Shown piece after piece: positions 17,603-35,488 of a stretch of 61,242 bases of DNA. Under the pieces are notes generated by a model. That model ran no database searches, was not told the DNA's origin, and worked only from the letters and a program-made list of their open reading frames with translations. The position numbers and the translations under genes were made by a program. Location: IMG/VR virus record IMGVR_UViG_3300031994_005355; one strand, 5' to 3'. The DNA is from a virus. Taxonomy: Duplodnaviria; Heunggongvirae; Uroviricota; Caudoviricetes. The first letter of the stretch is position 1, and each line of letters starts with the position of its first letter.

Positions 17603-18709
17603 ATGTCATTAAAAACATTTTTATATATCTCTTGTGTGTTATCAGTTCTTATTTGTATCTTAACTGTGATACAATTTAAGAAAGCACATACAGAGTATAA
17701 AGTTAGTTACAAGAAAATTGAAATAGGTATTGAAAAGCCTAATGTGTACTATTCACCTGAAACATTAGCAGATGGCAGTAATAATCAGCAGTTAATAATA
17801 AACAATATTACTGATAGTACACAAAATAAACAACAATTACAAACAAATACTTTAACTACTCAAGAATATCAAAAAGTAGTAAATATGGTTGACATTAGTT
17901 ATCCAAATGCTAAATTGTATCAAATAGCAGATCAATATTATCAAGTCTATTATGATAATCAACGTGTGAGTCCGTTATTTCCCTTAGCACTTGCAAATGT
18001 TGAAACACCTGGACGTGCTGATAATAATATAACTTGGTCAGCATTATTTCCTTCAAAAGTAGTAGACTTTGATTTAATAGATAACTTTAATGTTACATAT
18101 GTTGCACAAGATCCCATAACATATAATGCTTTAATGCATGAATACTCTACACGTGATCGCGGTGCATTACAAATGTCACCCACTTATGGCACTAAGAATG
18201 AATCATATAATTCACAAATGACAGGAACAGAAGTTGAGAAACTTTCCGCAATAAATATAAATCCTAAAGCTGTAAGTTGGGCACAAGGAGCGTCCAGTTA
18301 TAGTGGTGATCGCTTTAATATAAAGGATGTATGTCTGCGTTTAGCAAGTGCTGACTATAATGCAGTACAAGACATACAAAAGCATAATGTTAATATAGAT
18401 TCTGAAATCGAATTAATAATTATGATGGCAATGTATCATCATCGTTCAGGTGTATGGCATGTTGATGGTGCAGGTGGTTGGAGAAGTTTTGATAAAGCAC
18501 TTGCATATGCTAAATATTTAGCATCACAAGATATGGTCACAAGTCTGAATGATATTTATAAAAGTTCTGAAGCATTGACATTAGATGGTAAAGTAGCACT
18601 TAAATTATGCCCAGAATGGAATAAATACACAACGTCATCATTAGAAGCAAGTTACCCAATTAAGGCTTTATATTCTTATATAGTTTTATTACATAAATAT
18701 GGAAAATAA
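17603..18709 (+). CDS. Membrane-anchored lysozyme-like/lytic transglycosylase-fold protein
   Basis: N-terminal TM; PLALANVET (catalytic Glu at helix end), RGALQM (GxxQ) and MAMYH motifs of the lysozyme/SLT superfamily. Confidence 0.55.
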   Translation: MSLKTFLYISCVLSVLICILTVIQFKKAHTEYKVSYKKIEIGIEKPNVYYSPETLADGSNNQQLIINNITDSTQNKQQLQTNTLTTQEYQKVVNMVDISYPNAKLYQIADQYYQVYYDNQRVSPLFPLALANVETPGRADNNITWSALFPSKVVDFDLIDNFNVTYVAQDPITYNALMHEYSTRDRGALQMSPTYGTKNESYNSQMTGTEVEKLSAININPKAVSWAQGASSYSGDRFNIKDVCLRLASADYNAVQDIQKHNVNIDSEIELIIMMAMYHHRSGVWHVDGAGGWRSFDKALAYAKYLASQDMVTSLNDIYKSSEALTLDGKVALKLCPEWNKYTTSSLEASYPIKALYSYIVLLHKYGK

Positions 18710-18742
18710 GGGTACTCATGTACCCTCATGAAAGGAAGTGAT
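18709..18742 (+). promoter_or_regulatory. Hairpin+RBS motif copy 4
   Basis: AGGGTAC-TCAT-GTACCCT followed by CATGAAAGGAAGTGAT, then TTG start at 18748. Confidence 0.6.
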
Positions 18743-18747
18743 GCATA

Positions 18748-19563
18748 TTGAAACATGCAACAGTTAAGTACACACTTGCAGTGTTAGGTTCAGTAGTATC
18801 AATCGGTACTGCATCTATGATAGCAAGTAATCAGTGGTCAAGAACTGATTACCTAGATTCGTCCAATCCGATTGCTATTACATTACCTAATACTATTGAT
18901 GTATTTACAAATATTTCTCCTGATGTAGAAGAGTTAAAAAATAAAGATGCTCCATTAGAAAAAGAGAAAGATAAAACAAGTAATGCACAACAACCAAATG
19001 TCGAGTTACCTGCACCTGTAAATCCTTCTGATAAATTAAGTTATATATGGTCAGAATTGACAAAAGTAATGTCTGATGAAGCCGCTGCTGGTGTTATGGG
19101 AAACTTACAAGCAGAACATGGTTTTAAAACAGATGATACCCCTAACGGTTTAGGTATGGTACAATGGACTGGTGGACGTAAAACACTTGCACAAACACTT
19201 GCACAACAGTTTGGAATGCTACTTAATTCAGTTGAATTTCAAGTAAAGTATATCTTAATGGAGTTAGGTGGCGATGCAGGTAATGGTGTAAGCAATCAAT
19301 ATAGAAGCGATGCAACTCATGTAGCTAATTATGCAAATGCTATTGGTGCAGCATCAAGGATTGCGGGTCGTACACTACCAACTTCTGTAATAATGGATGC
19401 TAATTCATTTAAATCATGCAATGATGTAGACTTAGCTGCAATGTCTTGGATGTGTTTATATGAACGTCCAAGTTCTTCGATAAAAGCAGATGGGACTCCT
19501 GTATGTCACGCAGATGTAAGAGCAAATGCTGCACAATCAATATATCAGACTTATCACAGATGA
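18748..19563 (+). CDS. Phage-tail-type lysozyme (Phage_lysozyme2-like) with N-terminal signal/anchor
   Basis: AAAGVMGNLQAE, GLGMVQWTGGRK, FQVKYILMEL, YERPS, RANAAQSIY motifs. Confidence 0.85.
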   Translation: MKHATVKYTLAVLGSVVSIGTASMIASNQWSRTDYLDSSNPIAITLPNTIDVFTNISPDVEELKNKDAPLEKEKDKTSNAQQPNVELPAPVNPSDKLSYIWSELTKVMSDEAAAGVMGNLQAEHGFKTDDTPNGLGMVQWTGGRKTLAQTLAQQFGMLLNSVEFQVKYILMELGGDAGNGVSNQYRSDATHVANYANAIGAASRIAGRTLPTSVIMDANSFKSCNDVDLAAMSWMCLYERPSSSIKADGTPVCHADVRANAAQSIYQTYHR

Positions 19564-20240
19564 ATACATTATTAATAACTTGTACATTAGCAATGATTGC
19601 ATTTGTAGTTTTATATTTACGTATAAATAAACACATAAGTACACGAATGTGTATAATAGCAATCATTGTTATCATACTATTAGATTTTCTTTTGATTTTT
19701 ATTCTATCTAAATTCAGTCAACCTGAAGAGTCGCCAGATACAGAGAGTACAGTATCTACAGAGGTGTCAGAAGAAATACAACTAACACCTATAGAAGAAA
19801 GATATAAAACAGTATATGATTTAGGTACTGAGTTCACAGCTGATGAACTTAAAGATGAAGATACTATGTATTCTGAATTGATTTCATATGTTAGTGATTT
19901 CACTATGAATAATAATTACCCATTTCCTGGATACATTGGTTACATAAATACAGATTCAGATGGAACACATTTTTATTTCTATACTTATTTAGGTACTCAA
20001 GTCTATGACTGTGTACCTGTAGGAAATAAGTTATACATAAATTTTTATGGTTCAGTATATAATAAGGGGTTTAAAGGAATAATCTATGGTAATGTGAACT
20101 CCACAAGAATAAATATAAAAGGACTTGAAAAACGTTTGATACGTATGGGTCTTAATGATTTCTTTACTATCACAGATGTTACAGATAAAGAAGTAACTGT
20201 TACATCACCTAATTGTGGTACTCACACATTACGGATATAG
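19560..20240 (+). CDS. Membrane protein (2 TM) with acidic extracellular domain
   Basis: ATGA overlap with the lysozyme stop gives start 19560 (track 19503); two N-terminal hydrophobic helices. Confidence 0.7.
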   Translation: MNTLLITCTLAMIAFVVLYLRINKHISTRMCIIAIIVIILLDFLLIFILSKFSQPEESPDTESTVSTEVSEEIQLTPIEERYKTVYDLGTEFTADELKDEDTMYSELISYVSDFTMNNNYPFPGYIGYINTDSDGTHFYFYTYLGTQVYDCVPVGNKLYINFYGSVYNKGFKGIIYGNVNSTRINIKGLEKRLIRMGLNDFFTITDVTDKEVTVTSPNCGTHTLRI

Positions 20241-20247
20241 GTAAATT

Positions 20248-34181: not shown

Positions 34182-34227
34182 AAAGGAGCTGATTCTAATA
34201 AAACAATATAAGAGTACCGGAGGTGCT

Positions 34228-34380
34228 ATGGATAAAAATGTGGTTGAACTTAAAGTTCGCGAACCAGTGCTGGAGTATTTAAAAGAACGAAAGTTACGTC
34301 AAGTAGCTAATAAGATCTATAACGGTAAGAAACATATCTATGTAGAATACCGAGCAACAAAGGAGAAGGTTTATGCTTAA
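34228..34380 (+). CDS. Small basic hypothetical protein (50 aa)
   Basis: SD GGAGGT 4-9 nt upstream of ATG 34228 (track start 34174 overlaps the LDT gene). Confidence 0.55.
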   Translation: MDKNVVELKVREPVLEYLKERKLRQVANKIYNGKKHIYVEYRATKEKVYA

Positions 34381-34510
34381 AAAGGTTGGTGTGTTTATAC
34401 TGGCTGTAATAACATTTATATTTATGTTATGGATATTAAAAAACTTTCTTCACCCTGGAAGTCAGCGACCAGTCACACAAACTTTCGAAGAGATTGAGGC
34501 ACTGAAATAG
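34373..34510 (+). CDS. Small single-TM protein (45 aa), not in ORF track
   Basis: SD AGGAGAAGG; MLKKVGVFILAVITFIFMLWILKNFLHPGSQRPVTQTFEEIEALK*; fills the gap exactly. Confidence 0.6.
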   Translation: MLKKVGVFILAVITFIFMLWILKNFLHPGSQRPVTQTFEEIEALK

Positions 34511-34513
34511 TCA

Positions 34514-35488
34514 GTGACACTTAAACAATTATTAGTGACAACAGCTGCAATTTCGACGTCTATATGTGTAGCGTCTATAGTAGTTCACTGTAAGAGTAGA
34601 GAGTGGCATACAGAATTGAAACCGATCAAACCTGTATTTTTCGATGCAAATGGTAATCAAACAGATGAGCCACCTAATATTGAACATGAAGAAGTTACTG
34701 ATATTACATATGTAACTAACAATATAATTTCTTCTGAAAATAAAGACTTGATGACAAATAGTGTAACAACACGCAATGTGCAAACGCACATTGGAAATCT
34801 AAGTCAAGATGACAAATCAATAATCTCTATGTCGGACGAAGATGCTTGGAACTATCTGACAAATGGTGTTTTTGATTCATATCCTAAAACAGCATTTATA
34901 AACGTAAAGAATCAGCTCCAAAACTTATATGTTGAAAATGCAGTTACAATAACTGTTCCTGTTTGGTATTGGGAAGATCCTAATGATCCAAACAATTATA
35001 ATAAAATAACTAAAACTAAAGACTGGACTGTGAATAAAAGGATTGCTAAAATATGTGAACATATATTCAATGATATTTATAACGATCCTTCACAACCTAT
35101 TATAAACATTTCTGATAGTGCTGCAGGTACATGGGTAATACGTGGTAAGATGCATAATCCATACAGAACACCATCTGCACACTCAATCGGAGCAGCATTT
35201 GATATAAACCCAAGTTCAGGTACTTATAATGTGAATGGTGTTTTATATGGTAATGGTTATAGGAATAAACCTATGCCTTATGAAATTTGGGAAATGCTTC
35301 CAGAGTCACACAAAAAGTACAATGTACTTTATGAGGATTGCCCCATTGTACGTATATTTAAATCCTATGGATTTTACTGGGGTGGTGACTGGGAAACTGG
35401 AACAGATGTTATGCACTTAGCCTTTTTAGGTGATGGTGACAATGCACGTGAAGTGGGTAAACAAAACTATGTACGATATAATGAATAA
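34514..35488 (+). CDS. M15-family zinc peptidase (L-Ala-D-Glu / D,D-peptidase type)
   Basis: RGKM...SAHSIGAAFDINP (SxHxxGxAxD), FYWGGDW and DVMH; N-terminal signal/anchor; GTG start. Confidence 0.85.
   Translation: MTLKQLLVTTAAISTSICVASIVVHCKSREWHTELKPIKPVFFDANGNQTDEPPNIEHEEVTDITYVTNNIISSENKDLMTNSVTTRNVQTHIGNLSQDDKSIISMSDEDAWNYLTNGVFDSYPKTAFINVKNQLQNLYVENAVTITVPVWYWEDPNDPNNYNKITKTKDWTVNKRIAKICEHIFNDIYNDPSQPIINISDSAAGTWVIRGKMHNPYRTPSAHSIGAAFDINPSSGTYNVNGVLYGNGYRNKPMPYEIWEMLPESHKKYNVLYEDCPIVRIFKSYGFYWGGDWETGTDVMHLAFLGDGDNAREVGKQNYVRYNE

Follow-up and report, generated by a model that had tools for sequence, protein, structure and literature searches.

A block of anchored cell wall enzymes next to a VirB4-like ATPase in giant elements of gut Clostridia

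Little is understood of the way in which large machines and very large proteins pass the thick wall of Gram-positive bacteria, and what has been studied is limited to single multi-domain hydrolases, among them PrgK and CwlT. According to a review from 2025, known type IV secretion systems (T4SS) of Gram-positive bacteria rely on a single anchored VirB1-like protein that comprises one to three domains (SLT/muramidase, CHAP, LytM) and is encoded beside virB4 (PMC12857230); PrgK of pCF10 is a VirB1-like hydrolase of this kind (PMC11323569). In this work we analysed a DNA stretch of 61,242 nucleotides (IMG/VR record IMGVR_UViG_3300031994_005355; hereafter the window), in which positions 17603 to 35488 hold a block of separately encoded wall enzymes downstream of a gene for a VirB4-like ATPase. 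On balance, we lean towards this block being the wall module of a VirB4-based T4SS-like envelope machine that acts on the producer's own wall, and it is read in this way because it shares position, topology and core chemistry with VirB1-like proteins. By analogy, it would best be regarded as an unbundled, expanded and fast-changing equivalent of the VirB1-type hydrolase of Gram-positive T4SS. The machine is carried by a family of giant (150-560 kb) elements of gut Clostridia without prior description, and no account of a multi-hydrolase cassette next to VirB4 was found in the literature.

The block resembles PrgK, TraG (pIP501), CwlT (ICEBs1) and Orf14 (Tn916) in combining an N-terminal anchor with an extracellular catalytic domain and in lying beside virB4 (PMC12857230; PMC11323569). 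In both cases, too, a glycan cutter of the SLT or muramidase type is combined with a CHAP or NlpC/P60 cysteine peptidase. Whereas in those proteins the domains are fused, in the window they form separate open reading frames (ORFs) with their own anchors, amounting to six to seven enzymes. Amidase_3, M15 and L,D-transpeptidase are added to the repertoire and, unlike in the four known cases, accessory genes are interspersed with the enzyme genes, the block includes the gene of a 3270-aa secreted protein, and the content varies from element to element. The preliminary description of this DNA had stated that characterized Gram-positive conjugation systems usually encode one or two hydrolases, which agrees with the single protein of one to three domains given in the review (PMC12857230).

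Two further systems offer partial parallels. SpoIID, SpoIIP and SpoIIM of Bacillus comprise a separately encoded, anchored amidase/endopeptidase and a lytic transglycosylase that act jointly on the cell's own wall. Compared by description, they share with the block the use of separate anchored wall enzymes and local action, but they are chromosomal and sporulation-specific, have no link to a secretion ATPase and cover far fewer enzyme classes. In Enterococcus faecium, Ldt_fm and DdcY constitute an L,D-transpeptidation bypass. Similarly, the YkuD protein of the window matches Ldt_fm and is encoded two small ORFs away from an M15 metallopeptidase; unlike DdcY, this M15 protein resembles M15C L-Ala-D-Glu endolysins, and thus a tetrapeptide-donor logic is not supported.

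Regarding the element as a whole, it is comparable to Hodors (PMC12934698) and Inocles (PMC12340149), giant Bacillota elements of more than 200 kb that were long mistaken for huge phages or overlooked, and that also encode VirB4, secreted proteins of giant size and modules associated with the wall or surface. Hodors frequently contain Phage_lysozyme2 domains (PMC12934698), and wall synthesis genes and sortases are discussed for Inocles (PMC12340149). The window element differs from both in GC content and habitat: Hodors come from the human gut, have 44-47% GC and carry Rep_3, ParAB and sortases (PMC12934698), and Inocles are elements of oral Streptococcus (PMC12340149), whereas the window element derives from the ruminant gut and has about 33% GC. 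A multi-hydrolase cassette next to VirB4 appears in neither paper, and the words "peptidoglycan" and "hydrolase" do not occur in the Hodor text (PMC12934698; PMC12340149).

Enzymes encoded in the block

The window represents 61 kb of a metagenome contig that measures 294 kb and was obtained from a sheep gut sample, and DNA nearly identical to it was present in bovine and sheep gut sequencing runs from several studies. All of its 57 sizeable ORFs, among them the window genes described below, lie on the plus strand. The enzyme genes form a tight co-directional block that starts 5 kb downstream of the gene for the VirB4/TraC-like ATPase (10619..12655), which marks the left edge of a variable slot. 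Between 17603 and 37720 intergenic gaps do not exceed 56 nt, eight gene overlaps occur, and a search for plus-strand terminators across this region found none. The ATPase matched Pfam P-loop_TraG (E 1.9e-4) and the NCBIfam TraC-F-type model (E 2.8e-6), contains a Walker A motif at residue 309, and has 267 homologues, many of them located on contigs of 150-560 kb.

Seven wall enzymes had been named in the preliminary description, and five of them were supported by Pfam: a Phage_lysozyme2-type muramidase (18748..19563; E 6.3e-19), an NlpC/P60 cysteine peptidase (20248..20982; E 7e-5, borderline at 23.2 bits against a cut-off of 23), an Amidase_3 N-acetylmuramoyl-L-alanine amidase (22287..23123; E 4.5e-10), a YkuD L,D-transpeptidase (33009..34181; E 6.6e-23) and a LAS-type M15 zinc peptidase (34514..35488; Peptidase_M15_4, E 3.6e-14). 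The remaining two, at 17603 and 2831, were recovered by a structure model and by paralogy, respectively. Comparisons with PDB entries refined several of these assignments. The 33009 protein aligned with Ldt_fm (6fj1/1zat) over residues 157-389 with an E-value of 2.5e-26, both domains being covered and the SHGCIN motif aligned, so that it is of the Ldt_fm type. The M15 profile gave significant matches exclusively to the phage L-Ala-D-Glu peptidases Ply500 (E 6.4e-4) and LysB4 (0.028). A family profile built from the 2831 and 20248 proteins and their orthologues matched CwlO best (E 0.009), followed by LytE and Tse1, and the amidase showed weak matches to Cwp6, LytH and Rv3717. Single-sequence PDB searches with the 17603, 2831, 20248 and 18748 proteins returned noise only.

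The 17603 protein (17603..18709) had no sequence match in Pfam (including SLT, PF01464), NCBIfam or PDB, even when a 33-sequence profile was used, and its family is small, with 40 representative clusters among 1.84 billion proteins. AlphaFold2 modelling with this family yielded a confident model (pLDDT 89.8). Exhaustive comparison of the model with VIA-align placed MltC (Z 8.1), Slt (7.9), MltF (7.9) and MltE (7.7) at the top, with Tse3 (Z 7.3), Slt70 and phiKZ gp144 in the next ranks; the first eight entries were all lytic transglycosylases or the Tse3 muramidase (Z 7.0-8.1), and nearly all of the first 20 belonged to the lysozyme superfamily. With Foldseek against PDB and AFDB, MltE/SLT entries also ranked first, at E-values that were not significant. 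Glu134, located at the end of the helix formed by residues 125-134 and followed by a G-x-L-Q motif, is invariant in 33 homologues. On the basis of the model, we accepted this protein as a divergent SLT/lysozyme-like enzyme at the fold level, outside the Pfam SLT family, and as a putative membrane-anchored lytic transglycosylase.

A second NlpC/P60-like protein, with a C-terminal extension of 300 aa, is encoded at 2831..4510, upstream of a VirB3-like gene. It had no Pfam match and no homologue among the relatives that were fetched; leads from the protein atlas were NlpC/P60, CHAP and Amidase_5. Its assignment to NlpC/P60 was made solely because it is a paralogue of the 20248 gene product (BLASTP 3e-9), with the D-C and G-H-V motifs (Cys and His) aligned.

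In order to evaluate the clustering of these enzymes, five of the families were searched for in a genome background. Amidase_3, NlpC/P60 and YkuD together gave 25 matches in the 8 Mb of two related Clostridia genomes, and Phage_lysozyme2 and M15_4 gave one match each in the genomes searched. This background of about 3-4 matches per Mb corresponds to about 0.06 matches expected in 18 kb, and five were observed in addition to the SLT-like gene. Since five to six genes are found where about 0.06 would be expected, the clustering is not due to chance.

Intact-looking catalytic residues and an N-terminal anchor or signal had also been ascribed to each enzyme. Regarding the residues, those that could be placed were all conserved. 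In the lysozyme2 protein E123, G136 and Q139 are invariant in five orthologues; in NlpC/P60 C138 and H196 do not vary among four paralogues/orthologues, although a third member of the catalytic set could not be placed; and in Amidase_3 H93, E119, H173 and E243, which we take to be the His-Glu-His zinc ligands and the catalytic Glu of the family, are conserved with the orthologue. The M15 protein contains the motifs S-x-H-x-x-G-x-x-x-D (SAHSIG..D; H-x6-D) and D-x-x-H (D-x-M-H), invariant in three orthologues. DD-carboxypeptidases of the VanY type (M15B) have E-x-x-H instead. The D-x-x-H motif and the Ply500/LysB4 matches argue against a VanY-type DD-carboxypeptidase, and from its sequence the protein looks like a stem endopeptidase of the L-Ala-D-Glu type. 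The pairing of YkuD with a VanY-like carboxypeptidase as a cross-link bypass, which was also considered, is weakened by the same M15C-like motif and PDB matches.

Anchors were called by a hydropathy scan. In each of the enzymes between 17603 and 35488 the scan detected one hydrophobic stretch near the N-terminus, within residues 2-29, that of the lysozyme2 protein being weakly hydrophobic and rich in Gly, Ala and Ser; the 2831 protein has only a weak Ala/Gly-rich segment, just below the hydropathy threshold. The window YkuD (33009-33070) has a short uncharged hydrophobic start, and its orthologue in the sister element described below (L035:10001-10110) has a lipoprotein-like signal, with a hydrophobic stretch ending in Cys, so that the start codon or the anchoring mode may differ between the two.

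Judged by analogy with their families, two of the enzymes could act on the MurNAc-GlcNAc bond and others on the MurNAc-L-Ala amide, on L-Ala-D-Glu and on the bond between D-Glu and the diamino acid, and YkuD could add the formation of 3-3 cross-links. Among the enzymes identified in the window there is no glucosaminidase, DD-endopeptidase or evident DD-carboxypeptidase, and the two folds that cut glycan probably act on one and the same class of bond. The preliminary description of the set as covering essentially every bond class in peptidoglycan is therefore too strong, the specificities being assigned at the family level.

Conservation of the block and variation of the slot

A sister element (L005/L035, on a 247-kb contig) encodes a VirB4 71% identical to that of the window and keeps the gene order SLT-like protein, lysozyme2, accessory protein, NlpC/P60, two accessory proteins, amidase, giant protein, YkuD, two small ORFs, M15 and lipoprotein. 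Protein identities are 53% for the SLT-like protein, 32% for lysozyme2, 28% for NlpC/P60 (20248), 37% for the amidase, 46% for YkuD (at the same position), 54% for M15 and 43% for the lipoprotein; those of the accessory proteins are 29% (19560), 24% (20979) and 28% (21667). The two small ORFs have counterparts of 56 and 45 aa at the same place, the 45-aa pair aligning with an E-value of 2e-4, and M15 orthologues occur in L035, L024 and L037. Since the block is colinear gene for gene at only 24-54% protein identity, the set is co-conserved. In addition, a bovine-gut strain (X4) with about 94% nucleotide identity retains all the enzyme genes. Contigs identical to many parts of the block were found in two metatranscriptome libraries of a different study, which suggests that the block is transcribed.

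The backbone around the slot is syntenic in ten related loci, which include Pseudoflavonifractor capillosus ATCC 29799, metagenome-assembled genomes (MAGs) of Lachnospiraceae, pig-gut contigs and one IMG/VR record. Its left part consists, in this order, of a large polytopic protein, three conserved proteins and VirB4, and its right part of a lipoprotein, small conserved proteins, a DnaC-like protein, RNase H, DnaB, a VirB11-like ATPase and a polytopic partner. The slot between VirB4 and the lipoprotein spans 25 kb in the window; three relatives have slots of about 5 kb. Anchored wall enzymes occupy it in nine of the ten relatives, at two to six per element, and their classes change, being drawn from SLT-like, lysozyme2, GH73, M23, NlpC/P60, C39-like, M15, Hydrolase_2 and GDSL proteins. 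The slot of P. capillosus (L002) encodes SLT-like, lysozyme2-like and M23 enzymes, and that of the IMG/VR record (L004) an SLT-like protein together with homologues of the P. capillosus M23 proteins. Lysozyme2, NlpC/P60 and M15_4 are found in L024, and two GH73 glucosaminidases with M23 in L001. An SLT-like protein is accompanied by a GDSL esterase, lysozyme2 and a C39-like peptidase (C39_2) in L023; by GDSL, a C39-like peptidase (C39_2) and M15_4 in L037; by lysozyme2 and Hydrolase_2 in L038; and by lysozyme2 in L039, where the locus is truncated. In L003 a weak SLT-like homologue alone was recognized (31% over 72 aa, E 2e-6). The SLT-like family is thus present in nine of the 11 loci, window included (eight clear cases and the weak one in L003).

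Since wall enzymes fill the slot in nine of ten relatives and the SLT-like family recurs in nine of 11 loci, the multi-enzyme set is a trait of the element family, and the window and its sister hold the largest set among the loci compared. Two points raised in the preliminary description were addressed by these data: the enzymes are co-conserved, the whole block being colinear in the sister, and a count of hydrolase classes across homologous elements gave two to six wall enzymes in nine of the ten slots. Its proposal of a dedicated wall-remodelling system likewise found support in the location of the block downstream of VirB4, in the colinear sister and in the nine relatives, which tie the module to a T4SS-like machine.

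Some features of the relatives deserve mention. The GDSL/SGNH esterases of L023 (13930-15723) and L037 (14558-16027) are anchored and lie amid wall hydrolases; they may be peptidoglycan O-acetyl esterases that ready the substrate for the glycan cutters. P. capillosus ATCC 29799 is a cultured type strain in which the syntenic backbone lies at about 250-278 kb of a sequence of 316,823, with a compact three-enzyme slot; the GC content along this contig is 0.47-0.62, and the element may be integrated beside chromosomal DNA and another integrative and conjugative element (ICE).

Proposed mechanism and rival explanations

If the block is a wall module, splitting of the catalytic domains into separate genes, each product with its own N-terminal membrane anchor, would provide the machine with two glycan cutters, an amidase, two stem-peptide peptidases (NlpC/P60 and M15) and one synthetic L,D-transpeptidase. 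We infer from the anchors that these enzymes would stay tethered to the producer membrane and cut locally in its own thick wall. The cuts would create a portal that serves the machine as well as the giant secreted protein whose gene lies mid-operon, and the L,D-transpeptidase would re-stitch the wall around this portal with 3-3 links. The amidase and then the lytic transglycosylase could act in sequence, as in the SpoIID/SpoIIP sporulation machine. The enzymes form a swappable cassette, the content of which probably tracks the wall chemistry of each host lineage. A stronger version, which we consider rather unlikely as it stands, is that the slot holds a modular and rapidly exchanged set of tools for breaching walls, suited to the peptidoglycan chemotype of the cells that are inhabited or entered, the window form adding an L,D-transpeptidase rebuilding arm that re-seals the wall around the portal or fixes the giant protein to the wall. 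In that case, the enzyme mix would contribute to host range across a whole class of giant elements of Clostridia, and the module would by itself both cut and repair the wall, for which no counterpart has been described in secretion systems.

Several observations weigh against the block being part of a VirB4-based machine, or against particular components of that proposal. The 10619 ATPase is weakly VirB4/TraC-like, both of its matches being under the curated cut-offs, and neither a relaxase nor a canonical VirD4 was seen in the window or in a relative of 185 kb; this same relative (IMGVR_UViG_3300023495_000139, L004) is listed as a virus in IMG/VR. Matches to the SLT-like fold are middling in strength, with Z-scores of about 8 and no significant Foldseek E-value, and the NlpC/P60 alignment shows no conserved His, Asn or Gln at the spacing expected for the third catalytic residue. 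YkuD accompanies the cassette in the window's own sub-lineage only, and the contigs in the metatranscriptome libraries may stem from DNA carry-over. The preliminary reading in terms of conjugation is thus not supported by these data, and the opening of recipient walls and a cell-cell bridge, both raised there, are speculation.

Attack on competitors had been raised as well, and the enzyme genes do alternate with small fast-evolving anchored proteins (24-29% identity between orthologues), as would be expected of an antibacterial effector-immunity array in which the hydrolases are weapons against neighbours and the small acidic anchored proteins are the cognate immunity. The strong, arms-race-like variation of the enzyme complement among relatives, and the presence of the type VI secretion system (T6SS) effectors Tse3 (Z 7.3) and Tse1 among the structural and profile neighbours, point in the same direction. 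Nevertheless, an attack function fits poorly with the Sec-type N-terminal membrane anchor on every enzyme, and no secretion-system targeting domain was recognizable. The amidase has no partner, since the giant protein comes directly after it, the accessory proteins have no detectable family or fold, an L,D-transpeptidase is no toxin, and the position of the block is exactly that of VirB1-type hydrolases; such an array is consequently very unlikely. A similarly small probability is given to a huge phage or other particle producer, whose endolysins (some of them of the signal-anchor-release (SAR) type) and virion-associated wall degraders these enzymes would be. The block encodes Phage_lysozyme2 as well as an M15 protein whose nearest matches are phage endolysins (Ply500, LysB4), the weakly hydrophobic Gly/Ala/Ser-rich anchor of the lysozyme2 protein is like that of SAR endolysins, and one relative is deposited in IMG/VR. 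Against this, ten backbone proteins had no match in PHROG, TerL_ATPase had no match in the genomes or records of four relatives (including the 185-kb viral record), and a tblastn search with the ATPase against 50,697 phage records was negative, the absence of phage genes resting on 61 kb of the 294-kb contig and on the relatives. Moreover, most anchors are strongly hydrophobic, the genes lie inside a VirB4/VirB6-like block and not in a lysis cassette, and the transpeptidase has no role in lysis.

The third alternative dispenses with the machine: the block would reprogramme the host wall through 3-3 cross-links, stem trimming and room for, or attachment of, the giant protein, with adhesion, phage exclusion or antibiotic tolerance as the possible benefit. 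It draws on the close structural-family match of YkuD to Enterococcus faecium Ldt_fm (E 2.5e-26), on YkuD and M15 flanking the giant secreted protein and being kept together in L035, and on the wall or surface modules of other giant elements (Hodor, PMC12934698; Inocle, PMC12340149). We regard it as quite unlikely. The D-x-x-H, L-Ala-D-Glu-type M15 enzyme does not reproduce the bypass pairing of DdcY with Ldt_fm, the giant proteins have neither a C-terminal Lys nor a sorting signal, hydrolases dominate the set, and the slot is fixed beside VirB4 in all relatives, even in those without a giant protein or YkuD.

With the wall-module reading preferred, the family offers a natural series in which the same job is apparently done by two to seven separate, swappable enzymes. 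Each enzyme is small and anchored, and hence individually tractable for biochemistry, and the three-enzyme version in the cultured P. capillosus ATCC 29799 makes the proposal testable at the bench. It also gives a functional handle on gut elements of 150-560 kb that are now unannotated or filed as viruses. Finally, a mobile Ldt_fm-type transpeptidase on elements of livestock gut bacteria belongs to an enzyme class relevant to beta-lactam tolerance.

Giant protein, accessory proteins and neighbouring genes

The gene at 23140..32952, between the amidase and YkuD genes, codes for a secreted giant protein of 3270 aa without a Pfam match. Its signal peptide ends in AFA|D and looks cleavable, in contrast to the N-terminal segments of the anchored enzymes around it. 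The positional equivalent in the sister element has 4595 aa and almost no sequence similarity, and in the bovine-gut strain the C-terminal half of the protein (27150-33007) is replaced or strongly diverged, with the flanking enzyme genes colinear. In these respects it has the look of a hypervariable protein of the surface or adhesin type. Its attachment by the L,D-transpeptidase through a C-terminal Lys was considered and ruled out by the ends of the window and sister proteins (...LVP and ...ETR), which contain no C-terminal Lys and no sorting signal.

Three anchored accessory proteins are encoded among the enzymes. The first (19560..20240), whose start overlaps the lysozyme2 stop, gave no lead in the protein atlas. 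The other two are acidic, one of them (20979..21695) with a single N-terminal transmembrane (TM) segment; for the other (21667..22290) the homologue search returned the protein itself alone, and a two-sequence AlphaFold2 model was unusable (pLDDT 52). A VirB8-like NTF2 identity of the accessory proteins was considered, and these results speak neither for nor against it. Between the YkuD and M15 genes lie two small ORFs of 68 and 45 aa (34174..34510), the latter with a TM segment. The conserved right flank of the slot (35481..36516) encodes the lipoprotein, with a lipobox-like LLTSC, and a protein with a C-terminal TM segment, both having homologues in L024, L002, L004 and L001.

Few genes of the window were recognized by Pfam; besides the ATPase at 10619, these included HipA-like, Fic, RNase H, DnaB and CHC2 zinc finger proteins. 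A variable island with a HipA-like kinase, Fic, DUF4869 and small ORFs (12674..17474), identified by Pfam, separates VirB4 from the enzyme block and is missing or different in relatives. The stretch immediately after VirB4 gathers differing toxin-like or protein-modifying genes in several loci (window 12674-17474; L037:12548-13348; L038; L039), namely the HipA-like kinase and Fic in the window and a PARG-like protein and HipA_C elsewhere. The 128 nt between this island and the SLT-like gene (17475-17602) constitute the one intergenic space of notable size in the block; an additional 954 bp are found just upstream of 17603 in the bovine strain, and this gap may be an insertion hotspot or a promoter region.

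Megablast searches of the region against plasmid and phage collections gave no match. At the protein level, the only annotated relatives of the ATPase in PLSDB were DUF87 or hypothetical proteins (e.g., NZ_CP076292.1 and NZ_CP061871.1), with 22-24% identity over about 59% of the query. They lie on Bacillus plasmids of 136-216 kb typed as non-mobilizable, and may be a distant branch of the same machine. The IMG/VR relative IMGVR_UViG_3300023495_000139 has a CheckV completeness of 85%, a backbone matching the VirB4 element and no TerL_ATPase match, and it is probably misclassified as a virus. Further downstream in the window, the 47707 protein is a weak VirB11-like ATPase according to NCBIfam. 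In the region 47707-56801 this VirB11/TadA-like ATPase (with an N-terminal TM segment and Walker A) is followed by a polytopic membrane protein and then by six small proteins with N-terminal anchors, an arrangement similar to a pilus or pseudopilus module; both the ATPase and its polytopic neighbour are kept in P. capillosus and in the IMG/VR relative.

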